Shown: positions 4,070-48,600, numbered from the stretch's first letter. The stretch is 64,000 nucleotides of DNA from Bilabrum cf. latius (GCA_965178125.1 OZ237756.1:186001-250000); one strand, 5' to 3'. Numbers and translations are program-made. Notes: generated by a model from the letters alone, not told the origin.

Positions 4070-7000
4070 TTAAGCGGGTACACGGCTGCCGACGCTGGCA
4101 ACTAGTAACACTGTCGCACTGCCCAACCACACCACTGCCCCAGCTAGCGCAGCCACAACTAGCGCAGCAGCAGCACAGGGCGCCAATGCGGTCGCAACGC
4201 CCCACGCAATCCACTGAAGCACAAGAACCGCGACGGGCGCATCCACCTGCCTCACGTCCTGCCAGTGCCCCGCGGTGCCCGCCACGAGGCTCCAGAGCAC
4301 GGCCCCGCCCGACCACGCCCAGGCCAGCCGCACCCCGGCTACAACTATCGGTCCGAGCTCGCCAATCGGAATGGCATGCATCGCAACGCAGCTGGTTTTC
4401 GTGGGGAGGCATCCGTTGGCTTGCGGGGCACTCGCACTCGCAGGCGCATCTACTGCAATCCCCGGTGTGAGCACTCGATCGAGCTCACCACGAAGCGCCA
4501 GCTCCACCAGAACAGCAACAAATCCAGCCGCAACATGCTGCAAGCATTGTATTGCACGGTGCCTTGCACGGCCAGAGAGCTGCATGGCTGCGACAAGTGC
4601 GAACTGTCCCAGCAGCATGCCCGCGAAGAGTGCCACCAGCGCTGTCTGGGCTCCCCTGCCCGCGAACTTGGTTTGGGCAGCGCACTGAGCGATGGAGGGG
4701 ACGGGAGGTGCTGCAGCGCGCACTTGGGCAGATGGCTACGGGGACCTCTGTCGATCAACAGCGTCACCGCCACCCTCGTGCTGATCTGTGCCTCGACCTC
4801 CTCTCTGCTGCTCCGTCGCATCGGCTGCAGTGACTCCATCACCGGCATTGGCAGTTGCTGTGTCCTCGTCGTTACCGCCATCCTGATCACCGCCCCCATT
4901 TCCATCAACAGCATTCTAGCCACCGTTGGAGTCACCATCTTTTGCGCCGCCCTCTGCAAGCATTCTTGTCGGGTCGTCGCCGGCGCGGCCATCCTCGTCT
5001 GCATCACCATTCCCACCGGTGTCTGCTGGCCCAGCAGGCTATTCCAAGCCAACAGTATCGGTTTCCTGGTCCGCAGCTTGAGCATCTGAACCTCCGCTGC
5101 CAGCCCCACCCTAAACCTTTCTCGACCGCACCCTACGACTCGATCGACTCTTCAAGTGCCCCCTGCGCCGCTTATCACCTGCCCGACCACCACCATCACG
5201 ACCTTGGCCACGCCTGCGGCTGGCTCGGCGCACCACGGGGCTAGGCTCCTCCTCCTCGTCCTCATCTCCATCTCCCTACATGCCGTCGCTGTCCTCTTCA
5301 CGATGCCTCCTGCCACCACCCTGCGCCTTGCCAGCCTGCACTTCCTCCTCCTCCTCCTCCTAAGTGTCCTCGTTCGCAGATTCGTCCTGCTTCTCGCCAT
5401 ATTCTGCTCCGGACGATCCGGACGGGGGACTGCCGTTCTGCTCAGCTACCAGCGCTCCCACCACCAGCACGTTCGTGGGCTGCACCTGCTCCGGATCATT
5501 GGCAGCCGAGTTGCCGGAAGCGAGGCCAGCTGCCGCAGCGGGAGCCACGCCATCACTCGGGCTTCTGCGGCGCCGTGTCCCTGAAGCAACGGCAGGATCA
5601 TCACCTCGCCCAGTCAGTGGATCGGTTGCACCAGTACCGGAGCCTGTTTTATCACCAGGCAGCAGAGCGCGCTTGGCAGTGCTTCCACCACCGCTTGCGA
5701 CACCCTCTCTCATCCGAATCCCGAGTATCTGCACGCTGGCATGCAGCACAAGGGCCAGCCATCCGCCCAGCACGATACACGTCAGCAGCTGACTCCAACC
5801 GGGTTCAGACACGACGGACAAAGTCCACGTGACAAACTACCACAGGGTGCCAGTCACTGACATGATGAACTTCCACTAAGACAGGGCCCAACCTGTCCAC
5901 GATCGAGCCAACGAGCCCGAAATGACCCGAGCAGATCGCGCGGCTGCGTCACCATCCCGCCGTTCGCCTGATTCCGCAAGCTGCATTGCACTGCTCTGGT
6001 CGTTTTGCACCGCTACAACTACCGCCCACGCGCATATGACCGAAGCGCAGAGCCATGCCAGCCGGCGTGTCACCTAAGCTACGCCGCCAGCAACAGTCAC
6101 GATCACGGCGATACACCGTGCAAACCAGCCTCCACCCTGCTCAGGTGCAGCGGCTGCACCGTCCTATGCTGCATTTCCGGCAGCGTTCTGTCCATCGCCA
6201 TTGCCTTGTCCCTGCCCACGTCGGCAGCAGCACGCCGCAGCACGCAACAGACGGGTGACCCAGCCGGCCGCGTCCGACGCATACCGCACCACCAGAATGC
6301 AAGCGCCTCCAGCAGCACCGCAGGCCCACGCAATCCACCCGAGCAAGCCCAGCCCGAGCCCCGCGAGGAGGTCGGCCCAGCTGCTCGCACCCAGCAGTCG
6401 CAACAGCAAGCGCTGCGCGTTCCATAGAACCATGACCAGGAGCAAGCTCGTCACATTCAGCAGCATCGCACGGAGCGTGCTACCGCTGGACGCGCCAGCG
6501 CTGCCCAAGTGCTCCTCTTGCTCGTCTCCTTCCACTTGCTCTAGCGATGGCTGCATCATAGAAGATGGCAAGCCACTGAATAACAGCCCACCCCCTCGCA
6601 ATCTTCCACCAGCAATCGACAGCCCGTCATCCCCCTCCTCCTATTCTAAATCAGCTGATACCGGCAAGACACTGCCCACCTACTGCCACCGCGCTAGCCT
6701 CACGAGCGAACTGAGCACCAGCAGCAGCACGCCAATCGAGAAGCTTGGGCGCACGGCGCTTGGGCTGTACGGGTATCCCACCGCCCTCCTAATGTGTTCC
6801 CTAATTCCGAATTGCCGCCGCTCGGCACCAACGGGGTGCAGAGACCAGGTGCTGCTGGCCCGCCCCAGCACGTCTGCCTCAGCAGAAGCGAGGCAGGCCC
6901 TCCCGGCGCTGGCCAGCTCCGGGTCCAGGACGCACAGTGCACTGCATGCAACCTGCAGGGCCACGCCGGGTAGGGTAGTGCAGGACCTGTCCGCGACTCC

Positions 7001-9952
7001 GATCGACGACGAGGCATCGTCCCCGGGCGAGCTGCTGGGCTCAGCCAGCCCGATCTGCTGCAGCACGCCGATGCCCCCGTCAGTGCCCCTGCCTCCCCCA
7101 TCATTACCACCATCACCCTACCCTGCTTCCTGCACGACACCAGGGGGCGGGACAGGCGGTCCCTCCTCCTCCTGCTCTGGATCTGGCTGGGGCATGGGCG
7201 GGAGATCGGCGGTCTTCTCCGGCATCATGGGCGAGAGGACCTGCTGCCACCCCTCCTGCAACACGAAGGGGGGCGAGAGCACGCGATGGGCGCGGAACTC
7301 ATCCGGGTAGGACACGACCACGTCACCGTGTCCGATGGAAGTCGAGTATCCCATGGCGGACCGCAGGCACTGCATCCAGAGGGCGTGCTCCTGATCTTTG
7401 TATCCATCCTGGATCAGCTTGGCCCAAGTGGGCAGCGGCAGCGGCCAGGCAGCCTCCTGCAGCACCTCCCTGCGGCGAGATGCCCTGTCCTCCAGCGAGG
7501 TCTTGTCCTTGCCCTTGCGACCCGTGGCACCCAGCTCTGCTCCCAGAGTCCACGCCATGCTGAAGAAGATCACGCGGTCGCTGACGCCCTCATCCGGCTG
7601 GTACTCGGCCCCATCCGCCTTGCTCCTGCCTCGCTTGGCGGCCGGCCCGTGTTCCCGAGACCCGTGGTAGGCGGCAAACTGCCCCCGCTGCCACACCAAG
7701 AACTCGTCCTACGCTAGGAGAGGCGTGTCGGCTGCCTCACTGCCACTTTTTCTGTTGCTGCCGGCGGATGCATCCCCTGACGAAGCCGCTCCATGGGTGT
7801 GCCAGCGGAATGCAGACTCCAGGTAGAGTGCGGCCACCTGCAGCGATAGACACAGTGCCGTGCAGGCTGCAACCGCCGCGGGAAGAAGCAGTGCCTCATT
7901 CAGAGGCATGGGAGTTCCCGACATCCAAGTGGCCAGCACGAGGCTTGGTGACTCGGACCACATCGAGCCCGAAGCAACTGGGCGTGCTTGGGCCAGGAAG
8001 ACTGCTGGAAGAGGCAAGAAGCAGTCCACAGCAATGCCCAACAGCACCCCAATCCCAGCAGCAGGAGCAGCCCCTCTCACGCCAACTGGAATCAGGCGGG
8101 TAGTTCCTTCAACATGCCCCGTCCTGCGCCACCTGGCCACCGCCTGCAGCGACACCCATGCGAGGCCCATCGACACCCCGAGGGCTGCGAGGACACCGGC
8201 GTGCCGGTGCCCCACCTCGCCCTCGATCGCCCACAAGGACCCTGCACCCAGCCCAGCAACCGTCCCTGCCACCACGACCCCAGGAAGCAGCCCAGTACCC
8301 ACGAGCACGGGCCTCCAAGTGTACCACACGACCGACAAAGAGGCACCTGTGAGCGCCCAACCAAGTGCCCCACCTGCAGCACTTGCCATGAACCACGAGC
8401 CACTGGAAGAAGACTGGCCTGCATCTTCCTCGCCCATGCTTGTACTTACAGTCCCAAACCCCTTCTAATCACCACCTAGATCATCACCTAGATCGCCGCC
8501 GAGGCCCCAGGGCAGCCTGGCGCACACCAGCACGTCCCAGGCAGGCCACAGCAGGAGCAGCCCGAGCAACGCCCCGATGGCTGCCGCAAGCGGAACCACT
8601 ACAATGCCGCGGCGCCGCGCAGCCCTGTGCATGACCTCCCCTAGAAACCTCCTGGAGTGGAACCACACCGATGCGAGCGGGAAGTGGTGCTGCAGCCTCA
8701 GCTCCATGCACCAGTGCACCGGGGACAATGCGTGCCACACGGAGCACAGGGAGGTCCACGAGCCGATGGCCAGCAGCACGTTCAGCAGCAGCGGAGCAAC
8801 GGCCCATGGGTCATCACGCGCATCCTCCCACGTGCTGGGGAACACACTGCGACCGGTTGCAACCTGCGGGATACCAATGGCCGCCCCCCTCCACAGGGTG
8901 CCCCACAGAGCAGTCAGCTGGTGGTCCATGCGCTGCTCTTCCGGAGCCAAGCATGCTCGCAGGAGCAGCAGCAGGATGATGACGGCAGGGATGTGCCAGA
9001 ACAGCATTGCCCCGGTGCTGGTGGACACCTGCACGAAGGCTGCGGAGTAGGCAGGCGAGCAATAGAGCCGAAGGACGGTTTGGGATTGGGATTGGGATGA
9101 GACACGGCTTGTCAAGGGGAGACTCAACCGATGACCGCAAAGAGAGCACACAAAAACACAGAGCGAGCAAAAAATAAATAAAGGAAAGCATCGTGCCTCA
9201 CGCCGCATCCTGGGTCCCTCGTCGGGGTCGTCAGCATCGTGGAGCTTGTCAGCGGGTATCGCCAGCAGGCGGGGGATAGCCCTGGTTCCCTGACGAACGT
9301 TCGCTGCGGGAGGGCACGCGCGCTGGCAGAATACCTGTGAGGGGACCACCACGTCTCCTCTCGGCGTGAGCAGGAGGTGGCTTGCGACCAGCCCGCTGGC
9401 CTGGTATCCCATGGGCGGAGCGCTGCAGGTCACGGAGCGGATAGCGACCTCCACGTTCTGCCGGGCGCGGCCGTCGCTTGCGTTGAATCTGATACGATCA
9501 GGTGCAGTTCTCCAGAACATGGGGACGAGGAGCGTGTCCACAAGCTCGGCTGGGAGCAAATGCCTGATCCAGCCGATGCTCGCCTGCACGGCTCCTGCGA
9601 TGCCGCTGCGGCGGCGGATCGAGGTGCGCAGCTCCAATTCACAAACGTCCTGGGCTGCACCCCCGGCAGAACCGCCTGATTTCTCCCACCTAACGTTCGG
9701 CGGGGGAGGTTTCTTGCTATCTTCAAGGGAGAGGTGATCCAGATCGACTCCATCCATGACTAGGCGAGCGAGCTGTGCCATGAGTTCATCATTCCAGGCC
9801 TATCCCCTTCCGATAACGTACCGATGGTACAAGTTTAATGCCATGTTGCTGCCGATTTCATCGGGAATCTCGTTCATCACGCCCATCTCGCGGAATGCCA
9901 AGTACGGTTCCTTGCTAACCTCGTAAACCTTTCCATCTCCAACAGCAGCCAT
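4070..9952 (-). CDS. Large (~1900 aa) multipass membrane protein of unknown function
   Basis: Minus-strand ORFs ending at 8465, 7709, 7118, 6680, 6164, 5876, 5360 and 4070 are all in one frame and joined by ~16 TAGs. The gene ends at TAA 4072-4070. Probable 162-nt intron 9201-9040 (GTGAG...CTCCGCAG, T-rich). Many TM segments with acidic, Gly-rich linkers. The start (ATG 9952) is uncertain. Confidence 0.7.
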
Positions 9953-10165
9953 AGCTCCGTATACGTACGGTAAATCCACCCAGAATAATTGTGCGTATTT
10001 GAAGCCCTGCCGCGGCTGTCGGCTAGTAGATTCGATTGATCAAGCACCACTGGCAACGGTTGGCAGACAAACCGGAACCGACCCAGAGCAGGCCGCCAAA
10101 TAGACTAGTAGTCCATGTACACGCCGGCGGATTGCGCCCCGTCATACTTCGTGCTAGCCACAGCT

Positions 10166-12756
10166 TTACAGCTTACCACCACCTGCCCCAGCTACTGCTT
10201 CCATCCTCATCACCACCAGTTGCTTCAGCCCCAGGTACCGCTTCAGCGCCCGCAGGAAAGTGGGCCTCTGCATCAGGTCCGGCCACACCGACGACGACAG
10301 CCTCACGAGGAACAGCGGAGCCACGGTGAGAGGAGGCAGCTCCCCGTGCTCCACCACGGCCTGGCTCTGGCTCGAGCTGGATCGCTTCGAGTCGCTGCCG
10401 TTGGTAGTGCTGGTCTCCCAGGCGATGCCCCCGCCACCAGAAGATCTGGCACCAGTCGTGGATGTAGTCTTCACCCCGGTACCATCCGCGCCAGCTGCTT
10501 GCTCGTGGTCGCTGCTGTGGTTGTTTGCTCGAGCCTCCCTTCCTGTTGTATGCCTCTCTCCCTCAGCTTCCGACTAGCTTGACCTAATCGCACGCCCCTT
10601 GCTCACAAAGATAGCGTCCACGGGCTCCAGTCTCACCAGGTCCAGCAGCTTGCGCATGTGGGCGGCCTTCCGAGACTACCCTGCCACATTGGCTGGGTCG
10701 TTCTAGGCATCCGGATGATCAGTGCGCCCCCTGCCTTTTCCTCGTTCGGCCCTGGACCGGTTGGCCTCCGGCTCCGTGCTGTCTGCTTCCGGATCCTCAC
10801 GACCAGACACCTCGCCTGCCTTTGGCGCCTTATCACCCATGCGAAGGCCGGGCGTGAGACCGCCACCGGTACGGGCACCCGCGCCAGCGCCCCTGCTGGA
10901 AGTGCTTGGGGCTGCCAACCATTGAGCATGCAGCTTCACGCCCGATTGAGAATTAATTGCGTTTGCCGAACCATCATGCCGCTCTACTTTTCCCTACACA
11001 TACGACCTGGCGAGTCCAGTGGCCACAGACGAGGCAGCTTGCGCGCACTCATCACCCACAGCGGCAGGAAGGGTCTCCGTTATACAAGCAGGCGCGCTTG
11101 AGGCAGCTTGCGGCTCCGTGAATGGTCTGCAACTGGCAGTTTCCGCCGCTCGGGGCGGGCTCGCTGCTGCAATCGCCTCAGATTGTGTTGCTTTTGTACG
11201 TGGGAAGGCCCAGCTTCCCATTGGTTTCTCACGCTTTCCAAGCCTCACATGACTTGAACTTTCTTCGACCTTCGAGCGAGTCAAATTGACTACATCCACA
11301 AGCGGCTCGCTATGCACCCTGGGCTGTGGCCTATCTTGCTGCTTCTTTGCTATCGGATTGGTAGGGCCCGGCGAGAGCAAAGACCTCGACACTGCCACTC
11401 GGTGCTTCCAACTGCTGCCGCCGAGCAAGCCAGAGCCAGTCCCACCTTCTTGTGATTCGATTGTCTTCGAAGCCCGAATCTGTGAAAGAGCTATACTGGG
11501 GAATTTGGGCGGTTGCCTCGGGAACTCGTACCCGAAGCTGCCGTGGTCGTCAGCAATCTCCCAGTTACTCTACTAGTATCGGTTGGTTCCGTGCATGCTG
11601 GCCGACGCTGAGGCCCTGCTTCCCTTTAAGCAAGAACGGGGCAGTCCGTGCAGCTCAGAGAGCTCCCTAGTGTATGAAAAACCGGCGAGCGAATCCAAGG
11701 TGCTGGCGTCTGGGGCCGTGGACACACGGTTCGCACTTGGCCTTGTGCTTCCCGGAGGAGCCTCGGCGATCATCATAGAGCCCTCACTCGTCTTGGACAG
11801 ACTGAAGTGCATGTTCTGATTCCTGACTCGTGCGATGCGAGCTCCCTAGCATGCCATGCATGCATGCCCAGCTCCGCCAACGCCTCCACTCTCCGTCTCT
11901 ACCTAGGACAGGTTCAGGAACGGTCCAGCCGCCGACATACTGCCGAACGACGAGCCCAAGCTCCTCAGAATCGAGTCAACTGCTACGATGAGAAATTTGG
12001 CAGATCCTCTTGGTATCTCAGCCCCGCGTGGTTCAGTCCGGGGTGGGTCGCCACCGTTCAAGCTTAGCATCGACACCTGGCTCGGTAGCGAAGCAGCTGG
12101 ACCCTAGTTCCAGCCGTCAATATCTCCCAAACCATCACGCAAAATACATGGGGCAGTTACTTGGAGCCGCGATGCAATGCTGCGTAGCTGGTCTAGGCAT
12201 ACGTGGTGAACACGGTTCTCAGTTGTCCCATCGTGTGCTCCACCGAGCTGAACCCGGAGCTGATCCGCCGCAGCCCTGGCGTTTCGAGAGATATGCCAAT
12301 TGACACTATCGAACCATTTCTGCATGGTTTCCTGCTCGCGTTGCCGGGGAGCGAACAACACCGAACGACTACTGTCCGCAACCGGGACCGCGAGTACCCA
12401 GAAGCACACGCCTGGGTCTAATTCCGTCCAGGATGGATGCACATCGTATTTAATTGCAGTTGCTTTTGATATATTGGGCCTGCAAAGAAATATGTTAGCG
12501 GCCATAAAGCTGGATCTTCGAGCGAAGTACTTCTGCTCGGTTGGGGCTTGCTTGGCAATCAGTATCCGCCAGTGAACGTTTGCGAGCTTACCCATTTGTA
12601 CCAGGCTTGGGTGACTAAATATTGTACTTGAGCTCCTACGAAATGAAGACATAGCCGAGAACGGGAAAGCGTTGGTTGGCGAGAGCGGACAGCTGGAGAG
12701 TGAGAAGGCACAGACAGGCTTACCCCGGCATCCATGGAGGAGCTACAACATCCCAT
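10166..12756 (-). CDS. ~796-aa hypothetical protein with N-terminal MGCC myristoylation/palmitoylation signal
   Basis: Exons 12756-12724 (MGCCSSSMDAG), 12635-12592 (ELKYNI*SPKPGTNG) and 12479-10166. Both donors are GTAAG, and intron 2 ends GCTAAC...TTTCTTTGCAG. The splice phases join into the long frame. About 10 internal TAGs; ends at TAA. Confidence 0.65.
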
Positions 12757-13059: not shown

Positions 13060-16000
13060 TCAAAGCAGCTCCCAGCCATCTGGAGGATCCACCGTGGACG
13101 CATCTCTTATTTTCCCAGAACTTCTCAATGTAGCGCGGGCCCTGCCTCCAAGCCCGCCCATGCCCAGCACAACTTCGTCTCCCGCAGTCACCCGCCGCTG
13201 GGATCCTCCCATCGACCGCAGCCTCTGCAGCGGGCCCCCATCCATGGGCATGCTATCGTCCATACCCTGGGTCGTTCCATGGGTCGCATCTGCGCCATCC
13301 GGAGAGCGAGCAAGCATTCCGTCCGATTGATCCGATCCTTCATCCAAGCGTTGCCACTGGGACCGAAGAACAGCGGGAGACGCACCACTGGCAGCAGAAG
13401 ACCTGTCCTGGCTTGCATCACTACTATGCACTGCACCCATGCACGCCTGCACCTGTACCCTTCGCCTGACCTGCTCTGCAAGCGCCTGCAGGCCAGCAGA
13501 CGGCACGGTCTGGCTGCCATTGCCACTGCCAGAGCCGCGCTGCTGCTGCTTGTCCATCAGGCCGCCCAGTCCCGGTGCCCTTCGCCTGCCCCTGGCAATG
13601 GCACTGGCACCAGGGGAGGAGGAAGCCGCCGCGTCATCAGCGCTGCCCCTGCGCCCCTTGCGACCGGTTGCAACCCGTGGCAGGCGAGGGGGAGCCTGTG
13701 ACGAGTGGATAGGCATGCCGCCCGCACCCGCGCCAGCGCCTGTGCCAGTGCCTGTACTTCTACTACCACCTTGTCCCAATGCATGGGATCCGGCTCTATC
13801 GGTGGTGCTGCCGACAGCAACAGAGCCGAGGGAGGCAGGCCCGATGGAGGCAAACTCGCCGCCCTCACCCTCGCCCTGCCCCCGGCTCACTCTTCCATCG
13901 CTTGCGGCGGGCCGGGCCTGCATGGAAACCTGGGCGGTCGCACCGCCATGGAATGCACCCACGATGGGCAGCCCAAACGCCTCCGCGGCGGTGTCAGGCC
14001 TCTCTCCCCTCGGGATATGCTCCCAGTGGAAGTGCGCGGGTGTGTTCCCCACGATCTCGAATAAGGGGGCTCGCTCTCCCCCCACCCTGGGGGCTCGCTC
14101 AGCCTCCTCTGACTCTCCCGACGCAGCGCGCAGGGCGTCGTTCATCCGGGAGGAACAGCCGTTTGTAGGCGCTGCGCCGTGGGTCATAGGAACACTCTGC
14201 GCGCTCGACCGCCGGGTGCATCGCACTGTGGCGATCCCGGCCCTCGCGAGCCTCCGGCACAGGTCGACAAAGTCCCTGCGGTCCCTCGCGTAGAAACCGA
14301 CGGCCAGGGATGGTGATAGCGTGCGAAATCTGGTATATTGAGGCACCCCCGTGTAGGTCAGCGTCCGCAGGTACGAGGCATCCAGCAGCTGAGAAGGGTG
14401 CACCGCCAGCCGGGCCTACGCACTCGTCACACTGCTATCGAGACCGGCACCTCCCCGTTGTGACCCAGCGGCATGCTACGCGCGTCCGCCCCGAGGGGTA
14501 TTCCCGCTGCCCTAGCCACAGCCACAGCCCTAGCCCTGGCCCTGGTTCTGGCCCAAGCACTAGCCCGCCTCGATGCCCCAGCCGGCGCGCCCACCCCTGC
14601 TCTCGCCATGCCCCTCCCCAGACCCAGTGCTCTCGATCGGGCCCGGCACTTGCGCGGCGCCCCCTACCAGCGGAACCTCAACCGAAGCCCCACTGGCCTG
14701 CGTGTCTCTGCTCTCAAAGCGACTCACGAATGGAGGCAGCTCCCCGCTCGCACCATCGTGCAGTGCACCCGGCGGGGCCTCCCCAGCCAGCCCGCCAGAC
14801 CCGATCTGAGTCCCAGGTCCCGATCTAGGGCTTGTCCTTGGGCTTCGTGGTGCTGTTCGCCTGCTCGGACTATCTTTGCTCGATGGCTGCTACCCTCGGC
14901 TGGCTGCCTCTCCCGATCCACTGCTTGCCCGGGAAGCGGCCCTGCGAGCTGTCCATCGTGCGGCTGCCCTGTCGCAGGCCTCCAGTGCTCCTCGCGGCAG
15001 CTGCGGCACTTCCTGCACCGTGTGGGGGTCCAGGAACAGACCCCTCGAGTACTTGAACGGGTGGTACCCAGGTAGCGGGGCGGGGTGCACTGCATGGTGC
15101 TGCACAGGCTGCAGGGAAGCACGAGCAGTGCCCATGCTACCTTGTTCCCCGGCGATTGCGCCAGGGACGAGTCTTGGGGCTGTCGTCGTGTGTCTGGCAC
15201 CGCTCGATGATGGATGGGAGGCGCTTCCTGACCTTCCACTGCCACTGCTGCCGCTCCGTCTTCCGCTGGTCCTGGTGCCCAGTGATCCCCTGGAACCTTG
15301 ACTCTCCTCCCAGTCATCCACATCCACGTGGTCGGCCCCCACCAGGTATAGCGAGTGCCCAGGTGTGCCCCCCACCACGCCGATGCACTGGGGCACCCGA
15401 AACAGCTCGGCCAGGGGCGCGACGAACCTGCGCTCCACCTGCGTGCCCGGGCCCAGCCGCAGGGGCACGATCAGCAGCAGGGAGGACCGCCACTCCGGGT
15501 CCTCTCCTTGTTCTCTGGAGTCACCGCGTTCCTCTGATGGAGCTGATGAGGCACCCGTGGGCCCACCCCGATATCCCATGGGGAGGGCCGTGCTTGGTTT
15601 GCCCGGGCTGCGAGGGCCACCATACGCAGGCGGGCGGAGGTGCCAATCCGGAGAGGCCGCAGGGCCGGTGTGGCCATCCTTGGGTGGTACGTCCACCACG
15701 TCCCAGCTGTCGTTCGATCCGGCGCGTCGAACCGATGGAAGCAATGGTGGCAGGTCCGGTGACCTCGGCAGCGGTGCTCTCTGGGTGGAATCCGTGCCTG
15801 GGAGGCTTCTTTCAGTGGTGTTGTCATGCTACTAGTCTTGAGTCTCCACCACGGTCCATCCGCCGGAGAGCTGTCTCTCTGCGGCCGGCGGCCCCACAGC
15901 CGAAGTGCCCTCGCCCTCGCTCGTCCCCTGAGATCCACGAGCCTCGGTTGCAGCTGCAGCTGCATCCTCGGGCAATAAAGGTGCTGCCATCGGTGCCGAC

Positions 16001-17562
16001 GTCGCATCACAGGCACTCGGTAGTGCATCGCTCGCCTCCTGGATGCCCCCCTGCCCGCTCATCTGTTCGCCATCGTGTCCAAGCAGCTCCCATCCAGCCA
16101 GCAGCAGAGGCCCTGGGCTCGCTGCGGAGCCAGCATCCGCGCTGCGTCGCCTTGCGCACTGCCTAGATCCGCGGTGCATGCGACCAGCCAGATCTGCAGA
16201 AGGAGTGTCCGCAATCTCCGGCGAGCTTGCGCGCGGCAGCATGTCTCCATGGGCGCTCTGGCCCGCTCCAGGTCGCAGCTTGCCTCGCCTGCGGCTGGCT
16301 GATTGGCTGCTCTGCGATTTCACGATCCCACCGCTGGAGTCTGGCACATGTCTGCTCGCAGATTGCTACGCAGCAGCGGGAGCCCCTTCTTCGTCCTGCT
16401 CCTGCCTCTCTACTTCTCCTTTCGTCCGATGCCGTCCTACAGCCCCAGCTGCCGCACCCCTCGAAGCCGAGATCGGTGGATCGCCGCTCCGTCCAGTTGT
16501 GCTCATCGAGGACGATTCCGCGTGGCACTCGTCACACCTGCACACCTACGAGTGCCTGCAGCACAAATCGTCCGCCTAGTCTGCACACACCACTCCCCCA
16601 TCGCCCGCCACCATGACGCGCAGGCCCGGTCCGTAGGGGCCGCCAGACCCGGCACCGTCTCCTAACAGCAGACCGCCCCCCCCTTGCCCCCCCTCGGCAG
16701 CAGGCTGCAGCTCCTCCCACTTTGCGAAGCACTCCCTGAGCACGCAAGCCGCCGCTCGCGGCCCGTACCACTCGCCCACCTTCTTCCCCTGCAGCGCGCC
16801 CGCCGCGCACAGCGCGTGCATGGAGAAGGTGCAATCCGCCCTCGGCAGGTCCGCGAAGAGCCAGGCCAGCCGCTTCTTGAGAGACACGGGGAGACCTCCA
16901 TGTCGGTGTGACGAGTTGGGTGATCCGCCTCTTCCCTTGTCTCCCGCGGCCGCCGCTGTTCCCGCCCTCCACCCCTCTTTGCCCCAGTGCACCTGCACTG
17001 CCTGGCAGGCCAGCATCTGCGTGGTCCGGAGCATGCAACCCCACCCCGCGTCCGTTGTCACGCCGCGCCCTCCCACCGCCGACTCCCCGAACGTTCGCCG
17101 CATGGCAGACCAGGTGGAGCTGCCGTCGGAGAGAACGGTGGATGAATCGGGAATGGCCCGGCTCGGGCTGCCGCTCCCCTCGCTCGATCCGGGCGAGGGG
17201 CCCGAGGTACAGCCTGCGGCAGGAGCCTGGAAATATTCACCGGCAAGTCCTGCCTTTGCAGCTGCTTGTAGGCTTGCCATCCCTCTGCGGTACGTGATCC
17301 ACGGCAGTCCTTGCAGCGCCAGTTGCAGCTGGGCAGAGGGCAACGCCACCGGTCGCGGGCGCCACTGGTGATGCGACGGAGGGGAGGACGAGCCGTGCTA
17401 GTCAGATTTGTCTGCACCGTACAAGCCACCGCGCTTGTCCCCTTCGAGGCGCCGCTCTGCCGTGGTGCTGGCTGCGTATAAAAGGCCGAGCACCCACACC
17501 TGCCCGCTGGGTGGATCCGTAGCATCCACCATGCCCATCCATCTCCGGAAGGTATCAACCAT
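13060..17562 (-). CDS. ATG4: Autophagy cysteine protease ATG4 (peptidase C54), ~1500 aa with low-complexity insertions
   Basis: Motifs occur in order in one frame: VWVLGLLY, PWITYRRG, TDAGWGCMLRTTQML (catalytic Cys), KKVGEWYGP, LLLIVPLRLG, QCIGVVGGTPGHSLYLVG, FLDPHTVQ (Asp/His), LSPSLAVGFY. The C-terminal DGWELL is LIR-like. About 12 internal TAGs; ends TGA 13062-13060. Confidence 0.92.
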
Positions 17563-17788
17563 CGCAACGTGAGGAACGATTCATCGTTCGCGGATTGAGC
17601 GTGTCCTGGCTTGGACGTTTCTACTCCACTTCAAGTTGCTTCGCTTTGCGATCGACAGGTTCATCATTAGTTCGCTCATGATCCAGCGAACTTCGCGTCA
17701 ACGGCTCGGTTCGCAAGCTTTTGGAAGTGCAGCATTCGAAGGCCGGCACCTGAGTTGAATTTTTCTGTCTTGGCTAGATACAAGTACT

Positions 17789-39590: not shown

Positions 39591-40939
39591 GTCTCCAGGT
39601 GGTGATCGGCGATGCCCAGATCCTGCCCCCTGCCAGTTGCAGGGGCCTCCGACTGCTTCTGAGTGATGTATTCCTCTTTTTAGCGGAACCAGCTCTTGTT
39701 CTATTGATATAACGGAAAGCTGCGTCTGATGTAGTCCAGTCAGGCTCGTCGGCGCAATTCACCGATTCGCGACCATTTTGCCCGACGTTCTGAATACCAG
39801 ATTGCGAACCCCCATCCGAATCAAGTATTATTAATACGAATTGGCAGGACTACCTCCGTTGAATGTCCGGGTCGCACGCAACTTGTTTTGTATCCGTTTG
39901 GAGGCATATAAGCCTTGCCAATCACAGCACCCGACACCAAGAAATGAACACATGTTCAAAGTACTGTCTGGAGCAAACAATCTATCGATCTGCATGGTAT
40001 CAAAGCCAGCATTTCTGCATCCGGAGCATCTGATGGCTACGGCCGTCTCGACAATCATCGCCCCGGCACACTACTGCCACACACCACTGCACTGGCGACA
40101 TCGTTAGAGACTCCGGGAAACATGTGCGCATACAATACAATGGTTTGGAAACCCTCTCATTATGAAATATTGACCTGGCCACCGATCATCCAAGGTTGGT
40201 GTGCCATTTGGGGCCCCTGCAACTGGATCCCAATGGTGCTGCGACAGCTGCTTCACGCCCTGCAGACTCGTCAACAGGTTGCGGGACCCGTAGCAACTGC
40301 CAAATCGCGAAACTTGCATGGCTGCCTACAATTAAGACACAGCTTTTCAGCTTGCGAGCGGTTACTGTATACTATGGGTAGGAATGCTCAAGAACAGCTC
40401 TTCAAAGCTGCCCTGCGGCAGGGCTTGGTTGCAGCTCAATATAAATGCAAACTTCACATAGAGTCTACATCATACGTACTTGATATGCTACGGCAAAATG
40501 CAGCACGGAATTGTGACACGTAAGACAAAAATATGTGCAACGAGACATGTACGTACCCACCAAGACGCGAGCTACGACGCGTACACCCATGATTCATTTG
40601 CCCATGGATTTTGCGTGGATAATATCCACTACGGATTTGGCTTTTATTCAGCGAATCTAACGAGGAGTGTGTCACAGTATGTATAAATATTATCCTCCGG
40701 ATCCCCGAAGTAGGTGCGCCCCAGTGCAGTGCACTATACTTTCTTGCCCATGATGGTGCTTTTGGTTATATTGTAGCTATTTGTTGCATGGCACTGACTA
40801 TGTTTCTACCGATGTATACAGTTTGTTGAAGTGCCCAGTACGAGCTCACATGGATGCGCCAAGTAGCCGGGACGAGCGTGGATACCGTGCAGTTTAGGCT
40901 GCTACGAAATCCATGTAGTCGAAGTGGAACCAGAATGTC

Positions 40940-43411
40940 ATGCATACCGCAACTAGGAGGCTTTCCATGTCCAAATCTAAACGGCGGCGCCTGGTGGAAG
41001 GAGCTGGGCCCAAACAGGTACTCCGCTCTGTTGAGTCTGTCCCATCCAGCTCTATCGTGAGCTTGTCAAGCAACTTTTAGGCCCAATGCATGGGCATTAT
41101 TCGTGATGTAAGCAGCATTAGCGGCGTTATAGTAGTTGATCCGCGAGTGCCAGCAATTGAGCAATCAAAACATGTCCAATCAGCGTGGAAACACTCGCCT
41201 TGCGGGCTCGCGCTGTGGCCCGCCGATCAGCCGGGCATAGTGGTGCTTCCGGGTTTCTTGTCTCTAAAGGAGAGGATTCAAATGTGCGTGCGAGCATCCA
41301 CTCAGTGGTTGGGACCCCCGTTTTAGACCAATCTCACTGAAATGTCGAGGCTGCAGAGAGCCCCTGCCCCTGCTCGCCGTGGCGAGGCTGGCTCGGACAA
41401 GGCAGCCGAAGGAGCAGCTACTGCTACCAGTAGTGGCGGCACCAGTCGCACTAGGGATACAGAGCAGCATGCACATGGTGACCCGTGGGCTGAGTACGTC
41501 TCCTGGATCGGGACCTGGAACAGGGAGACTGCCAAGTGTGGGCCTGGGCTCTGGGCACCAGGTGCTGCCACCATGGAAGCTTCGAGTCGGAGTGGCAGTG
41601 GCAGTGGCAGTGGCAGTGGCAGTGGCAGCGGCAGTGGCAGCGGCAGTGGCAGTGGCAGTGGCAGTGGCAGTGGCAGTGGCAGTGGCAGTGGCAGTGGCAG
41701 TGGCAGTGGCAGTGGCAATGATGGGGCGATGGGCCATGCAGAGCTCCAGACTGGTCAGTCGGTCCCATCGGGCCCTGACTTGGCACGAGCCCACGCATCG
41801 TCTTCGTCCTCGTCGTCCTACGCGAGTCCACCAGCTCTCAGAAAGGACCAAATGTCCCAGCCAGTCCCGCCGGGTCCGAGTGACGGAGACTCGGCTGGTG
41901 AGGCAAAGCCGAAGCCTACGCTTGGGGGCAGTGAAGCTATCACGAAACATGCCGCATCAGTCAAGGGAGTGTATTCGTCACAGCTGGCTGGCATCAAGCG
42001 CCCCGCGGCTGGTCCATGCCTAGAGGACGAGGACGCACCAGTCGGCTCATCCACAGCGTGCACGGATCTGTCACCGCTGCCGCCCAGTGTCAGCCTCAAG
42101 ACCAGGATGCATCGCACTGCATGGTCCACTCTTGGATTTCACTACGCGTGGGGAGCAAGGCAGTACGTGGATGGGGCGGGGTATCCAGAGCTGCATGCTC
42201 AGCTCGCGACAGGAGCGGATGGACATGGTGCTGGTGCTGGTGCTGGTGCTGGTGCTGGTGCTGGTGCTGGTGCTGGTGCTGGTGCTGGTGCTGGTGCTGG
42301 TGCTGGTGCTGGTGCTGGTGCTGGTGCTGGTGCTGGTGCTGGTGCTGGAGCTGGGATCGGAGAAGCCCCAAAGGACCCCAAGGGTAGCTAGGCACCGTCC
42401 TGCGATGCACCTAGCACAACCCCTACCGTTGTCACGGCTTCCGGTTCCACGGCTCCCGCCTCGAATCCCTTGGGTCTACCTCCCCCCCCTTTCCCCGCCT
42501 GGCTGCACACCAAAGGCAAGGAGCTCTGGAGGAGGGCGGCGGATCTGCTTGGACCAGAGCATGCTGCCCTTCTGATGACACCACCGGTGGAGAGACATAG
42601 CTAGACATAGAAGACAGGGAATGTGAAGGGCAGCGGTGCTCCCTAGCCCCAGGCAGCATCGGGTCATGCGGCAAGCCAAGCTGCACGGGCAGGCCAACCA
42701 CCCGTGGTACCACGACATGCCGTCCCTCAGTTCCACCCTGAGGCCGCGATCGTGAACCTATACAAACCAGGGGCTGCAATGGGACCGCACAGAGACGATG
42801 CCGAGCCATACCGAGGTGCCCCTGTGGTATCAGTGTCCCTGGGCTGCCACGCGGTATTCCTGATCGGCGGTGAGGAGGAGAGGGATGGGGCGAGAGCGGT
42901 CCTGCTGCGGGCCGGTGATGTCGTGCTGATGGGGGGTCAGGAGAGGCTGGCGCTGCACGGGGTGGGCGCTGTGTTCCCTGGGACCGGGGATGTTGAGATG
43001 CACGAGGCCCTGGGTAGGATGTCAGAGGGAGAGGGGTCACCTGGAAGTGGAAGCCCAGCTGACTCTAGACCAAGGAGACCAGGGGTGCAATCGACAGGCG
43101 CTGTGCCTGCAACAGCTCCAGGTGCCGCAGGACTGCACGCATCCAGCAGTGATACTGCACCAACAACAACAAGAGTGTGGCTTGTGGAAAAACTGCACCG
43201 TGCCTCAGAAACTGCGCGTTTGAGTCCTTCGCGCAAATAGGACGGCGCGGAATGCAGCAGGGACCATGCAGGAGGCAGCCGGGATGTTTGCCAAGAGCTC
43301 GAGGTCGATGCGGAGACCACTGCGGCCGTGAGCAGGTTGCTGTTCTGCCGCCGGCTCAACATCAATCTCAGGCAGGTGTTCCCGCCTGCAGGGGGAGCAC
43401 CAAGCAGGTGA
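40940..43411 (+). CDS. ALKBH1: AlkB-family 2OG-Fe(II) nucleic-acid dioxygenase, ALKBH1-like (~823 aa)
   Basis: One frame carries PGIVVLPGFLS, TNL, WSTLGFHYAW, PPPFPAWL, EAAIVNLY, GPHRDDAE (HxD), PVVSVSLG, LRAGDVVLMGG, LALHGV and RRLNINLRQV. Seven internal TAGs (41078, 41324, 42389, 42602, 42608, 42644, 43238); ends TGA 43409-43411. Confidence 0.88.
41591..41716 (+). repeat. Coding hexamer microsatellite (AGTGGC) x ~21, encoding (Ser-Gly)n
   Basis: Directly visible, with two AGCGGC variants, in frame within the ALKBH1-like gene. Confidence 0.95.
42227..42346 (+). repeat. Coding hexamer microsatellite (GGTGCT) x 20, encoding (Gly-Ala)n
   Basis: Directly visible perfect array, in frame within the ALKBH1-like gene. 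Confidence 0.95.
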
Positions 43412-43644: not shown

Positions 43645-45483
43645 TCACCTGCCGGCATCCCCAGCCCCCCCTGTCGCCATTCCCGGGTCTCCACCGCCCT
43701 CCGAGTCGCTGGGGTCAGACGAGGAGGATCCGGACGATGAGGACGACGACTTGCTGTCTGAAGACGAGATTGAAGTCACCGAACTATCCGTTGAGCTCTC
43801 CTCGGGCTCGCTGGGAATCTCCTCCCCCTTGGCCCTGGCAGCCTCCACCTTCTTGGCGTGCTCCTCCAGCTCCTTGGCACGTTTCCTCGCCCTCCTCCTC
43901 ACCTTGCGCCTGAGTTTCTCCCTCTCCTTCTCAGTCGCCACCATGCTCCACCCATCCCTCCTATTGATCTCATCAGCAACCGCAGCAATGGCTGGCCGCT
44001 TGGCCCTGAGAGCCGCAAGCCACCGCCGCGACATGGCACGCCGGTCCGTCCTCGTCCTGACCCACACCCTGGGGAACAACGCCGGGGTGCAGAAATTCTG
44101 AGTCACCGCGATTGTGTCGTCCAAATTCAGCACAGCATGCCACCACCCGCTCGGGACGTACATGGTCTCCCCCGGCCGTTGCACGTACAGGACCACGCCC
44201 AGCTGCTTGGCGCCGCGCACTGCAAGTTCCGCTAACCCCTCGGACGTGCGTGGAATATCCTGATCAGTGGTTGTACCGGCAGCAGGTGACGCGCCTGCAC
44301 CCGCGCCAGAACCGCTGGCAGGAGCAGCCGCCTCTGCGGATGCTGCTGCTGACGAGGCAGAGGCAGAGGCAGAGGCAGAGGATGGTGAGGATGATGATGA
44401 TGATGATGATGAGGCACCAGGGGCCGGTCGCTTCGATTTACCGGGCGAAATGCCCCCCTTGCTCTTGTCCTTTGCCTTTGGCTTGCCGGTCCTGGGATCG
44501 ATTCCCGCCGCCTCCATACGGTCGCATGTGACTGCCACAGCTGCACAGGCCCTCGGCAAAATGGAGGTAAAGTAGTCGATCGCCTCGTCGTCCTGGCTCC
44601 CATCCTTGTCCTGGAACCGTCTCGATTTGACGACTTCCTTCGGCAGGATCGGGGGCATGAGCACCCACAGCTTCCGGCCGCGGATGGCTGCGTTCCAGGC
44701 AGACGTACCCAAGGGGTCCAGGTGCACGCAGCTGCCAGACCTCCGGGGGCCGAACAGGACCCAGCGGTACGGCGGGCGGCGGTCATATCCAGCAAACCGA
44801 AACAAATCGTCCGCAAAGTACTCGGGCGGTCTGTAATCGTCGAGCATGGAGCCTGCGCGCCGCTTGGAATCGAAGCCGGAATCGAACACGTACAGGGGGC
44901 TGTCGTCCTCCTGTGCGCCAATGTACCGGAAAAAGTGCTTCAATTTGACTTTGATGGGGAAGCCATCGTCATCTTCTCCGCACTTGAATGGCACGTTCTT
45001 GTACTTGCTGTACAGTTTGGTCGGCGTCCAGTCGCTCGATGCCGCCCACTTCTCGACGACCCCTTCAATCACGCACGGACGGCACTTCCTCTCGAATTCT
45101 GCCTCGAACTCCTCCTTAGACATAGAGTCTACGTGAACCCGGGCTATCTTACCGATGGGAAGCGGCTCATCAAGCAATCTTGGTTTGTCGCAGTGCTTCG
45201 CTTGGGTCCATTCTTCAATTTCAAGGTCCGTGCGCTGCTTCTTTCTAGCATCAAGCATTGTTTTTGTTCCCTTTTTATCCAATTTCCCTGCGACATCTCG
45301 AAATTCATCCGTGGAACATGCGCCCAAGCCTGCCGTTGCAGTTGTCGGGAATCGCGCCCCGTACACGTCAGCCAGCGAGGGTGGAGTGATCCCTCGCCGC
45401 TTTGTGCCGGAAGAGGACTTTGAACTCATTTTAGACCCATCACTCTTGTGCGGAGGAGGTGCTGTCGAGCCGCACGTGGGCAT
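43645..45483 (-). CDS. JMJD6: JmjC lysyl-hydroxylase/arginine demethylase JMJD6
   Basis: Motifs FKCGEDDDG, DDSPLYVFDSGF, RPPYRWVLFGPRRSGSCVHLDPLGTSAWN and QRPGETMYVPSGWWHAVLNLDDTIAVTQNF, plus a Ser-rich tail. No internal TAG; ends TGA. The start may be 45483 or 45430. Confidence 0.93.
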   Translation of the reverse strand: MPTCGSTAPPPHKSDGSKMSSKSSSGTKRRGITPPSLADVYGARFPTTATAGLGACSTDEFRDVAGKLDKKGTKTMLDARKKQRTDLEIEEWTQAKHCDKPRLLDEPLPIGKIARVHVDSMSKEEFEAEFERKCRPCVIEGVVEKWAASSDWTPTKLYSKYKNVPFKCGEDDDGFPIKVKLKHFFRYIGAQEDDSPLYVFDSGFDSKRRAGSMLDDYRPPEYFADDLFRFAGYDRRPPYRWVLFGPRRSGSCVHLDPLGTSAWNAAIRGRKLWVLMPPILPKEVVKSRRFQDKDGSQDDEAIDYFTSILPRACAAVAVTCDRMEAAGIDPRTGKPKAKDKSKGGISPGKSKRPAPGASSSSSSSSSPSSASASASASSAAASAEAAAPASGSGAGAGASPAAGTTTDQDIPRTSEGLAELAVRGAKQLGVVLYVQRPGETMYVPSGWWHAVLNLDDTIAVTQNFCTPALFPRVWVRTRTDRRAMSRRWLAALRAKRPAIAAVADEINRRDGWSMVATEKEREKLRRKVRRRARKRAKELEEHAKKVEAARAKGEEIPSEPEESSTDSSVTSISSSDSKSSSSSSGSSSSDPSDSEGGGDPGMATGGAGDAGR

Positions 45484-45687
45484 GTAGGTCGCCAGATGGG
45501 CGAGCGATGGGTCCCGCCGCTGGGCCAACACCGGTTCCGCAAAAGTTGGCCGCGCGCCGTGCCTTTTCAAAAGCAGTCAAGAGTACAAATCCAGCTCATT
45601 CTACACAAAACAAAGTCGACAAGCATCGCCAGCAGCAGCCAAAGCAGTCCCGTTCCATTCCATTCCTCCCTCCCTCCCCGCGCGCGG

Positions 45688-48600
45688 TTACTCCTCATAG
45701 ACAGCGCCGGCAGCCCCGCCCAGCCGCAGCTGCACCGCAACCCCGAGGGCCGCAGGGGCACCCAGGGAACACACGCCCCTCTCGTGCACCATGCAGAGCC
45801 CCTGCAGCCCGCCCCTAGAACTCTAACGGCTGCCCACATTGGCGCCCACTCCACCTGGGGAGGTGGCGGCCCACGCCCGCACCCGCACCAGGCCGCGGGA
45901 CAGCACAGGCACCTCCTGCAGCACCTGCACCGCTGACGCCGCCACGCCCACGCTCGTCACACCGCATCGACCCGCCGCCACTCCGTCTTCCCTCCTCTTC
46001 AGCCTGGCCGCCATCTCACCCAGCGCCTCGGAGGTTGCAACCGGCTGCAGGCTCACCCTGAGCGTGGCCTGCTTGCGCCAGGCCAGGGGCATGTAGTCAG
46101 ACCCTGCAGGCACCGAGGCGAAGCCGGCTGGGCCTACGGGTGACGAGTGCGGAGATGCATACCCCCGGGGAGGTGGCGATCCTGCACCGCTGGCGCCTGC
46201 GTGCATGGAGCCAGGGGTCTGTGGCTGCTGGTGCTGTTGCTGGTGCTGATGAGCATGAGCCGAAGTGGCCGCAGCAGCCGTCGCGCCATTTTGCCCCGCC
46301 AGAGACAGGGGCGACTTGACGGCGATCACGTGGCACCCCGTTGCTGCCCTGAGTCGGGTCAGCGCCCCGAGGCACCTCGCCATGAGTGCCTGTCCGCGGT
46401 GTGGTTCCAGCCCCGCGCACTGCCGGTAGAAAGGGGCCAGGGAATCCAGGACCACGAGGCCCGCGGGCCGGGTACACGCGTCCGGGGTCGTGCCGGAGAA
46501 CAACGGAGAGGGGGGGCTGTCAGCGCTCGGGGAGCTCCTGGCGTGTGTTCCCTGGCCCGTGGTGGGTGTCCTTGGCATGCTGGGGCCTCTAGATCGCTTG
46601 GAGGGGGGCTCGGGGTCGAGGGCTGCTGCTTGCCCTGCAGGTGGTATGCGTGAAGTTGCGCCGCTCATGGAGCCTGGCACCATTGCATCATCATCGTCGT
46701 CGTCATCGTCATCATCGTCTCCGCTCTCATCCACCATGCCAGTCTGCCCAGCGTTGTCCTGCGGCCGAGCACTCGAAGCTGAAAGCTGTCCATCAGCTGC
46801 CGTGTGCCTCGACTTTTCCTCCACCTCTTTCCCACCTCCCACTTGGTGCATCCGAGCGTCTGCATGTCTTCCTCCTCCTCTTCTTCCCTTCCTGCTCGAC
46901 AGGGCGGCCATGGCGGCAGGCCGCATCAGCTTGGGGGGCGCCATCACAATCTTCTCCGACACCGTCAGGGCGGTCTCAACATCGAAGGGGGTGGCACATC
47001 GCGAGAGCAGCACCCTGCCCATGCACGCCCGCACCACTGCGTTGATCCTCGCGTTGATCTCAGCACGGGCGAAAGGTTCCAGCTCCTGCAGAGCCAAGGC
47101 CACCTGGGTCCCTAGCGAGACGGCTGCAAGGGCGGGGAACTCGGGAAGGAGGGCGTGGGCGTCCCGGCCCAGCCCGTGAAGGTGCATCGCACTACCTTGC
47201 ATGTGCTCCCCGAGCGCAGCGGCTGTACATGAGGAGGCAGAGGCCATGGCAGAGGAAGAGGAGGATGATGCTCCTACCCGCGACTGTTCCTCTGAAACGT
47301 TGCCCGCTCCTCCCTGGGTGCCCATGCACCCTTGCAGCATCAGCCTCTCTCGGTCAACCCCCGGCTGTTTCTCCCCCACTGATTCACCGCGCCTTGCATG
47401 GAAACGCCCAGCTTCCAGCGATGCCCCCTGGGAATAACCCCTGCTGCCGCCCGCTGTGAGAGACACCTGGGTGGCTCCAACCAGCGCCTGGGATAGTGCC
47501 CCGCGCCTCAGGTGCCGAGCGCTGGCCTAACGCATGCGTGCAACTTGTCCATGTCCGTGCTAGATGTGAAGCCCTGCCTGGGTCAGAGAGGGTCCTCCGT
47601 TCGATCCACCGGTGGATTGCGCCGCGTGCCTCCTCTGCGACAGGGACTGCACTAGGTCACCCTAGGACTGCGTGAGTGCCATGCCGGCTGCGATCGCCCT
47701 AAGGACAGGGGGAGGGCCGGGTGACCCTTCGGTTTTGGACGGGGGGCTGCTGGCGATACTACTGCCCATCCTTGGCTGTGCGCCTGTTGCACCAGCACCA
47801 GCTCCAGCACCAGCTGCAGCTCGGTTGGAGAGCAGCGCGCCCAACTTTCCTTTGTTCAGGAAGTGTGCGAGGCCGAGCGGGAGCGGAAGATCGTTTGCCG
47901 CGCTTGCAAGTGAGTCCTCGCTGGCATATATCTCGCTCGCGTGGCTGTCAGTGGACGATTCCCCCTCGCCCCTGCCCCTGCCCCGCTTCCTGCTCCTTCT
48001 CGGGCCAGTTCCCTTCGCCCCTGCCCCCCTCTCCTTCGGTGGAGTCGTGTCAAGACCTGCGGGCTCGCCCAGCGCTGTGGCAGCACCCTGAGGATGGAGA
48101 GTGAATGAATCGTCGGCTGCTCCCCTCGTGGCTGGATCGGTACTGTAAGGAGCCTGCGATCCTGGAAGGACGGTCGCCTGGGGTGGACTGCCCATTTCAT
48201 CGGCACGCCGGTCTCCGTAACGCCTCCTTCGCAATGATTTGAGACTACCACCACGCGCACCAAAACCCTTTGTTGCAGTTGCGTTATATTGATCGAGGCC
48301 GTGATCCATGAGCAAGGCACATTCCCGCGACATGGCTTCCGAAGCAAGTGCTCGGGCCAACCGAGCAGCGCTCCAGCGCTGGTCGCAATCGACCACGAGG
48401 GCGAGCGACTCGCAGCCGCCGAGCGACCTTGGCAACACGCATTGCACTACTGCATTCAATGCGACCGTGCTCTTGCCGGTCCGGCGCCCACCGTACAGCT
48501 CGGTCCAGCCCATTTTAGGAAGTCCCGGTGATGATCCCGGTCGATGCTTGCCGCAGCGATCAATCACGCCAATCCCGGTTGATTGATGTACTGCCTCACC

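Follow-up and report, generated by a model that had tools for sequence, protein, structure and literature searches.

UAG as a sense codon beside terminating UAA and UGA in a GC-rich nuclear DNA window from Bilabrum cf. latius

The stop codons UAG and UAA nearly always change meaning jointly. Whether the two have been uncoupled is the question raised by a stretch of DNA of 64 kb from Bilabrum cf. latius (GCA_965178125.1 OZ237756.1:186001-250000), which is referred to here, at its full length, as the window and in which positions are counted from the first letter. The window has a GC content of 55-68% (about 61% overall) and encodes typical eukaryotic nuclear genes, as judged from Pfam, PDB and homologue alignments; it is nuclear DNA of a GC-rich, intron-poor, flagellated protist. 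Reading with the standard code splits the genes into many pieces, whereas reading through TAG produces long single frames that are closed by TGA or TAA. When TGA and TAA are taken as the sole stops, the gene set comprises 15 long genes and one spliced proteasome gene (Table 1), and 14 of these 16 genes contain at least one in-frame TAG. The cytoplasmic code is very likely one in which UAG is a sense codon, most probably for glutamine, and in which UAA and UGA are the sole terminators, an arrangement that corresponds to NCBI table 15. A preliminary description of this DNA had proposed that UAG was reassigned alone while UAA was kept beside UGA, and this proposal is borne out by codon statistics, by the loss of coding signal, by RNA-like contigs and by homology across TAGs.

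UAG is read as a sense codon in real coding frames and is kept in RNA. In the 15 long genes, with codons counted from the first ATG and two intron-affected stretches taken out, there are 85 in-frame TAGs, no TAA and no TGA among 16,953 codons. The zero for TGA is partly a matter of construction, and so is the zero for TAA; because the boundaries of the open reading frames (ORFs) had been set by TAA, the frames were relisted with TGA as the only stop, which provides a non-circular version of the count. Before the intron-affected stretches were removed there were 87 raw in-frame TAGs, 38 of which fall in eight frames with Pfam support (Atg4, CFAP53-like, JmjC, TIG, AlkB, Rad51-like, leucine-rich-repeat and subtilase). 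One raw TAG (22335-22337) is intronic and is spliced out in RNA-like contigs, and another (12743-12745) sits upstream of a frame-shifting intron in the orphan gene G3. In the AlkB/ALKBH1-like dioxygenase gene (G8), the last TAG (43238-43240) stands 57 codons before the TGA, and beyond it lies the R-x-N-x-N-x-R-Q motif of the C-terminus (R307, N309, N311, R313 and Q314 in the alignment), which is invariant and common to all six homologues found. Thus, this TAG near the 3' end must be read. Likewise, the JmjC domain of the sulfotransferase-like gene (G6) lies downstream of its sole exonic TAG, in frame and on one continuous contig, and the Atg4 protease (G4) aligns with PDB structures of ATG4A/B in three blocks. 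Pfam and PDB searches with the tails that follow the last TAG of the AlkB, XRCC2-like (G10) and leucine-rich-repeat (G12) genes gave no matches, these queries being too short.

The RNA-like contigs come from coded public runs of two studies (X6, X7 and X8). They are treated as RNA-like because they carry a GT..AG-bounded deletion of 181 nt and because they are bounded by genes. The deletion corresponds to the intron of G6, whose removal leaves a joint at 22232/22414 in contigs of X6, X7 and X8 that reach 19346, 19450 and 19395, respectively; joints near 19450-19760 were disregarded, as they fall in GGC-rich low-complexity sequence. There are 27 TAGs under X6 contigs, with zero differing letters, and a single letter differs in total over 20 kb of contig comparison. 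Since the TAGs are unchanged in X6 and X6 also carries the spliced intron, neither splicing nor editing eliminates them. All 12 TAGs of the Atg4 gene are among those under X6 contigs, and the X6 contig over the orphan gene G2 spans 4390-5261 and includes four TAGs. Over G3, the X6 contig at 10018-12363 shows zero differences. The intron of G3 measures 112 nt and lies upstream of the counted part of the gene; the corresponding joint (12478/12591) has CT..AC ends and is carried by X7 only, at a depth of 3. The CFAP53 homologue (G5) is covered by RNA-like contigs at 17728-19252, 17731-19191 and 17750-19255.

What UAG encodes can be judged at few sites, because most TAGs lie in poorly conserved inserts. 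The clearest of these sites is the TAG at 36676-36678 (plus strand) in the TIG/cadherin-like membrane protein gene (G7), which falls in a column of an 'F-Q-M/L-A' motif where homologues carry Q in 121 cases, L in 10, M in four, I in one and G in one, and Ser in none. These are the 137 homologues that align across the site, out of the best 150 of 2,745 from a full HMMER search. The query carried Q at the TAG site, a single residue that cannot create the column. The G7 family is large: the 2,745 matches (E <= 0.001) include many proteins of 3,000-7,000 residues, the 'F-Q-M/L-A' motif is a conserved membrane motif, and no name or function was found for the family. Another source of information is a recent segmental duplication of about 2.4 kb (56744-59181 and 59528-61860, 94-98% identity), which copies the 3' part of the leucine-rich-repeat gene G12 and the whole of the orphan gene G13 and thereby yields a partial copy at 59433-60080 and the gene G14. 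Where the paralogues differ at a TAG, it is paired with CAG twice and with AAG once, and one TAG is common to both copies. For instance, the TAG at 57264 in G12 is CAG at 59946 in the duplicated copy, and of the three TAGs in G14 one is shared with G13, one is CAG there and one is AAG there. Two TAGs of the AlkB gene that had been aligned to the W and the R/E of 'QYDWTRK' were rejected as candidate sites, as the true counterpart RTAWSTLGFHYAWGARQY lies further upstream in the protein.

On the alignment column and the paralogue pairs, UAG probably specifies glutamine. A sense codon for another amino acid, whether Leu or Ser (the readings in the rhizarian exLh and in Scotinosphaera, respectively), Lys or Glu, is an unlikely alternative, to which the single conserved column, the Leu found there in 10 of the 137 homologues, the one TAG/AAG pair and one TAG that stands opposite a conserved Pro lend what weight it has; it is opposed by the Q in 121 of 137 homologues at the same FQ(M/L)A site and by CAG in two of the three paralogue differences. 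The occurrence of TAG at 'G-Q-G'-like repeats in Atg4 and at an 'N-x-I' position of the leucine-rich repeats also speaks for glutamine and is suggestive only.

UGA is a terminator. TGA ends 12 of the 16 genes (11 long ORFs and the spliced proteasome beta-3 gene) and TAA ends the other four; the preliminary description had identified TGA as the commoner terminator, with a count of about 16 such ends that comes down to these 12. Both the proteasome beta-3 gene and the CFAP53 homologue are conserved genes that stop at TGA at homologous C-termini. The former can be aligned end to end, with its TGA exactly at the C-terminus of the homologues, and in the latter residues 7-476 of 477 align to residues 13-482 of 482 of its homologue. 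A region that appeared to contain in-frame TGA (53652-54827, with three ORFs in the same frame split by TGA) was rejected as such a case, as it consists of the proteasome beta-3 exons and introns. It is also conceivable that TAG has a dual, position-dependent meaning, with TAG read as sense inside genes and as a stop near the 3' end of some mRNAs, on the model of those ciliates and trypanosomatids in which no codon is reserved for termination. The last TAG stands four codons ahead of the TGA in G1 and 14 codons ahead of it in G11, and behind a real TAG stop the first TGA or TAA should turn up by chance within about 70 codons (an estimate from frame counts), so that these two genes are ambiguous. 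However, with 85 TAGs in 16,953 codons one or two would be expected by chance within 15 codons of 15 gene ends, all conserved genes with checkable ends finish in TGA, and the last TAG of the AlkB gene has to be read for the invariant motif to be reached, all of which makes the dual meaning improbable. As for a code without any dedicated stop, of the Condylostoma or Blastocrithidia type, TAG is the only one of the three triplets that is present within the frames of the 15 genes.

TAA is absent from coding frames and closes four genes where the coding signal ends. The preliminary description had named these four ends, all on the minus strand, and had stated that TAA never occurs inside a coding frame; the ends are all in place (Table 1), and the TGA-only listing contains no TAA within gene bodies. 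In that listing, in-frame TAAs are found within the last five codons of G2, the last eight of G3, the last 11 of G6 (three TAAs) and the last 37 of G10, and the remaining ones lie upstream of the first ATG (G3, G7 and G11). The next in-frame TGA follows five codons beyond the TAA in G2 and 37 codons past it in G10. The base after the TAA is A in three of the four genes. Of the four genes, only G10 has a tail long enough for a separate test of codon bias. Across its TAA, the codon score falls from +0.22 to -0.13 and the GC content of third codon positions (GC3) from 0.81 to 0.49, and the 37-codon tail scores lower than 99.7% of the 37-codon windows inside the gene. A drop in codon score is likewise seen behind the TAAs of G2, G3 and G6 and behind most TGAs. 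At 19410, the preliminary description had noted a membrane segment and short tail before the TAA and two further TAAs behind it, and this is what the sequence contains: a hydrophobic segment followed by a 29-residue basic tail and, four and five codons beyond the TAA, two more TAAs in frame, where the DNA has a GC content of 43%. X6 contigs span the TAA ends of two of the four genes, G3 and G6, and continue unspliced beyond TAA for 148 and 64 nt, respectively; the TAA ends of G2 and G10 are not under any contig.

Whichever frame is counted, TAA is less frequent than either of the other stop triplets (46-56 per frame vs 112-161 for TAG), and rarity alone therefore had to be tested as an explanation of its absence. 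In the two-fold codon pairs, the ratios of A to G at the third position are 0.25 for CAA/CAG, 0.27 for GAA/GAG, 0.29 for AAA/AAG and 0.14 for TTA/TTG. By these ratios, 11.7-24.6 in-frame TAAs would be expected over all genes if TAA were synonymous with TAG, and none is observed (P(0) 8e-6 to 2e-11). For the weakly biased genes alone, where 81 of the TAGs are located, the expectation is 13-35 against an observed zero (P 2e-6 to 5e-16). Moreover, the ratio of TAA to TAG in these genes is 0:85 in the coding frame and 65:181 when the two remaining frames are counted (Fisher P = 5e-10). That UAG and UAA have both been reassigned to glutamine, with TAA being merely too rare in GC-rich DNA to be seen, draws on this general scarcity of TAA, on the fact that fewer than one TAA is expected in the three strongly biased genes and on the report of such a code in Amoeboaphelidium, for which the GC content is not known (PMC6299283). 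Against the deficit in the weakly biased genes, the confinement of in-frame TAAs to 5' leaders or to the last 5-37 codons of four genes, and the ending of the codon bias at TAA, a joint reassignment is very improbable. An artefact, in which the TAG-bearing frames are antisense frames or pseudogenes or the TAGs are removed by splicing or RNA editing, might be suggested by the intronic raw TAG and by a long TAG-bearing frame opposite G7 and is scarcely credible in view of the eight TAG-bearing frames with Pfam or PDB homology in the same frame, the lack of any opposite-strand frame above 438 codons for the orphans G1, G2, G3 and G11, and the unchanged TAGs of the run that carries spliced RNA. 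The frame opposite G7 (33450-36365, minus strand) runs for 971 codons without a TGA or TAA and contains 18 TAGs; it was rejected as a gene and regarded as a by-product of codon bias in G7 on the opposite strand. Thus, inference of a code from ORFs alone can mislead in GC-rich DNA.

Several points weigh against the reading of UAG as glutamine beside terminating UAA and UGA. The evidence base is a single 64-kb window with 16 genes. The assignment of glutamine draws on one strongly conserved site and on paralogue differences that are also of the commonest mutation type. The other TAG of G7 (29356) falls on a variable column (11 alignments, nine of them with a residue there, and no consensus), and the TAG at 63612-63614 in the subtilase-like gene (G15) aligns with the Pro of 'A-P-G' in two weak PDB matches (E = 0.003 and 0.007). 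A dipeptide-context likelihood over 80 sites was uninformative, with Asp and Gly highest, Gln low and the values a few log units apart. Two of the four TAA-ended genes, G2 and G3, are orphans without homologues, and homology cannot test readthrough past TAA because only 5-37 codons remain before TGA. None of the listed runs that contain the sequence is on record as RNA; X6, X7 and X8 are only guessed to be RNA (X6 is marked 'probably DNA'), and their contigs reveal neither the strand nor true 3' ends. Finally, the earlier statement that no gene ends in TAG is correct by construction only, and G1 and G11 might end in TAG.

The use of TAG varies strongly between genes. Among putative Gln codons, TAG accounts for 81 of 490 (16.5%) where codon bias is weak and for four of 248 (1.6%) in the three strongly biased genes. 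By codon number, the density of TAG is about ten-fold apart, with four in 5,736 codons in the strongly biased G5-G7 and 81 in 11,217 codons in the other 12 genes. The strongly biased G5-G7 also show the highest contig depths. TAG may be a minor codon, produced from CAG by a C-to-T change at sites under weak constraint, that would be avoided where fast or accurate translation is needed. By established decoding rules, UAG would be read by a tRNA-Gln with the anticodon CUA, which is one base from the normal CUG, and such a tRNA would be unable to read UAA, as C34 does not pair with A. The simplest source of the tRNA would be a mutated copy of tRNA-Gln(CUG). On the side of termination, the predicted change in eRF1 is confined to UAG, whose recognition would be weakened or lost. 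Neither a tRNA gene (ARAGORN), nor an Rfam match, nor an eRF1 gene was found within the 64-kb window. The same combination of a CUA tRNA with an eRF1 altered for UAG only is the standard inference and is stated likewise in PMC5304391, according to which no anticodon other than CUA is possible when UAG is sense and UAA terminates; the names of the eRF1 N-domain motifs (GTS, NIKS and YxCxxxF) are also given after that article (PMC5304391).

The genes of the window are listed in Table 1. The genome carries GT-AG introns; most of the long genes appear to be intron-free, and intron density is strongly variable between genes. The orphan frames are G1, G2, G3, G11 and G13; for G2, the longest frame on the opposite strand has 438 codons. 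In G6, the sulfotransferase-like N-terminal part, the JmjC/cupin domain and the C-terminal membrane segment are joined in one spliced transcript, and the product of G7 has a region rich in cysteine and ends in a multi-pass membrane part. The AlkB gene contains (Gly-Ser)n and (Gly-Ala)n tracts at about 41600-41700 and about 42200-42300 (plus strand), which are in-frame hexanucleotide microsatellites between conserved dioxygenase blocks, and large low-complexity inserts comparable to these are also present in the Atg4 and XRCC2-like genes. In the subtilase-like G15, the 'A-P-G' motif stands just before the catalytic serine region, and if TAG is Gln, the residue is an unusual one in this protease. 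In a 317-codon frame at 23349-24302 (minus strand), which has no Pfam match, a stretch of about 45 residues is duplicated in tandem ('DARTVISARD...GFCTVGATY' twice); the codon score of the frame is near zero, and it is probably non-coding repeat DNA.

Table 1. Genes of the 64-kb window when TGA and TAA are taken as the sole stops; numbering from the first letter of the window.
Gene	Product	Coordinates	Strand	In-frame TAG	End	Further details
G1	orphan membrane protein, 5' end cut by window	2..3661	+	11	TGA	coordinates from stop to stop
G2	orphan, 1,989-codon frame	4070..10039	-	16	TAA 4070-4072	
G3	orphan	10166..12478	-	9 in this exon	TAA 10166-10168	intron 12479-12590
G4	Atg4 cysteine protease with large inserts	13060..17580	-	12	TGA	Pfam Peptidase_C54 E = 8.6e-44
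G5	CFAP53/FAP53 homologue (ciliary microtubule lumen protein)	17759..19222	+	1	TGA	
G6	sulfotransferase-like + JmjC/cupin, C-terminal membrane segment	19410..23079	-	exonic 21255-21257	TAA 19410-19412	exon 2 19410-22232; intron 22233-22413 (181 nt); exon 1 from 22414 upward
G7	TIG/cadherin-like membrane protein, 4,368 codons	24910..38016	+	29356-29358 and 36676-36678	TGA	strong codon bias
G8	AlkB/ALKBH1-like dioxygenase	40754..43411	+	9	TGA	Pfam 2OG-FeII_Oxy_2 E = 1.2e-28; PDB AlkB matches
G9	JMJD6-like JmjC protein	43645..45576	-	none	TGA	
G10	XRCC2/Rad51-paralogue-like, long inserts	45688..48894	-	4	TAA 45688-45690	
G11	orphan low-complexity protein	48889..52275	+	7	TGA	
	proteasome beta-3, 202 amino acids	53785..54827	+	none (no in-frame TAA either)	TGA	exons 53785-53846, 53948-54172, 54305-54482, 54684-54827; three GT..AG introns of 101, 132 and 201 nt (GTGAGT/GTGAGG ... 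CAG)
G12	leucine-rich-repeat protein	55416..57398	+	6	TGA	
G13	orphan, paralogue of G14	57607..59214	+	1	TGA	
G14	paralogue of G13 (93% nucleotide identity)	60286..61911	+	3		
G15	subtilase-like, 5' end cut by window	62265..63998	-	3	TGA	Pfam Peptidase_S8 E = 3e-9

The best protein matches reach at most 65% identity, and the named ones are mostly from stramenopiles, with fungi in addition for the proteasome subunit. The proteasome beta-3 protein is 65% identical to that of Chrysoparadoxa and 53-59% identical to the other homologues compared, which include fungi and a green alga. The search with the JMJD6-like protein (G9) returned at most about 48% identity over at least 40% of the query, and its named best matches belong to stramenopiles (Cafeteria, Hondaea, Aplanochytrium and oomycetes) and a red alga. 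In a JMJD6 tree of 42 rows (41 of the 120 listed matches and the window protein), the window protein is placed on an unsupported polytomy with a long branch. Between 25 and 100% of the words sampled from 40001-50000 are present in public runs that are filed under four different coded organism labels, and the organism therefore occurs in samples labelled as something else, possibly as an associate or a contaminant.

Reported cases of UAG-only reassignment come mostly from transcriptomes or ciliate mini-chromosomes. Here, the same type of code is found in chromosomal DNA of a GC-rich non-ciliate, with 16 genes, introns and matching RNA-like data. Lineages in which UAG is uncoupled from UAA show that the eukaryotic release factor and the tRNA pool can distinguish the two codons, a point of relevance to the evolution of genetic codes and to the engineering of amber codons in eukaryotes. 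In a practical sense, most of this organism's genes would be broken up by gene callers that assume the standard code. The window may, tentatively, represent an independent origin of UAG as Gln with UAA as stop, in a flagellated lineage without a printed code change and at an early stage of codon capture. The impression of early capture comes from the TAG share of Gln codons, which is 16.5% or 1.6% depending on the codon bias of the genes, and from TGA rather than TAA being the main stop. If this is true, the organism would provide a genome-level model for an eRF1 that loses UAG alone in a GC-rich background, for which public DNA and RNA-like data exist. The remainder of the genome sequence would allow the predicted tRNA-Gln(CUA) and the changes in eRF1 to be inspected at first hand.

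The UAG-only type of code is already known; it is real in the window, and here it occurs in an organism that appears unlike the described cases. The literature search, which did not extend to subscription journals and supplements, found no tie of a stramenopile, a labyrinthulomycete or a GC-rich non-ciliate genome to UAG as Gln with UAA as stop. The first description of a reassigned UAG beside a terminating UAA dates from 2017 and concerned a rhizarian (Leu) and Iotanema (Gln) (PMC5304391). The preliminary description had placed it among the rarest variants, a ranking that needs updating, as PMC11687900 reports more such lineages and lists, beside an uncultured rhizarian and Iotanema, also Scotinosphaera (Ser), Protocruzia (Gln) and several phyllopharyngean ciliates. 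The rhizarian exLh and Scotinosphaera have UAA and UGA as stops, as in the window, and differ in the amino acid, which is Leu in the former and Ser in the latter (PMC5304391; PMC11687900). The codes in which UAG and UAA both specify glutamine (UAR = Gln, NCBI table 6), as reported for many ciliates, hexamitin diplomonads, some ulvophytes and Amoeboaphelidium, resemble the window in the change from stop to Gln. Unlike the window, with no TAA in 16,953 codons and four genes closed by TAA, these codes also use UAA as a sense codon. A tRNA-Gln(CUA) is documented in some of the organisms with UAR = Gln (PMC5304391). Amoeboaphelidium, the only fungus-related case, is reported to have UAR = Gln (PMC6299283), which does not fit the TAA result of the window. 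Protocruzia tuzeti and phyllopharyngean ciliates also assign UAG, and not UAA, to glutamine (McGowan et al., 2024, PMC11687900), and this change is described as having more than one independent origin (PMC11687900). In contrast to the ciliates, the window is a 64-kb multigene stretch with 61% GC and GT-AG introns of 100-200 nt, and its best protein matches are not alveolate. The closest counterpart in codon assignments is Iotanema spirale (Fornicata), for which UAG as Gln with UAA and UGA as stops was inferred (Panek et al., 2017, PMC5304391) and for which the predicted mechanism is likewise a tRNA-Gln(CUA) and an altered eRF1 (PMC5304391). UAA is the predominant stop in Iotanema, whereas TGA dominates in the window (12 of 16 genes) and TAA is in the minority (four of 16). 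In addition, the data on Iotanema are the transcriptome of an anaerobic metamonad (PMC5304391), whereas the window is GC-rich chromosomal DNA whose ciliary and proteasome proteins do not have metamonad sequences as their best matches.

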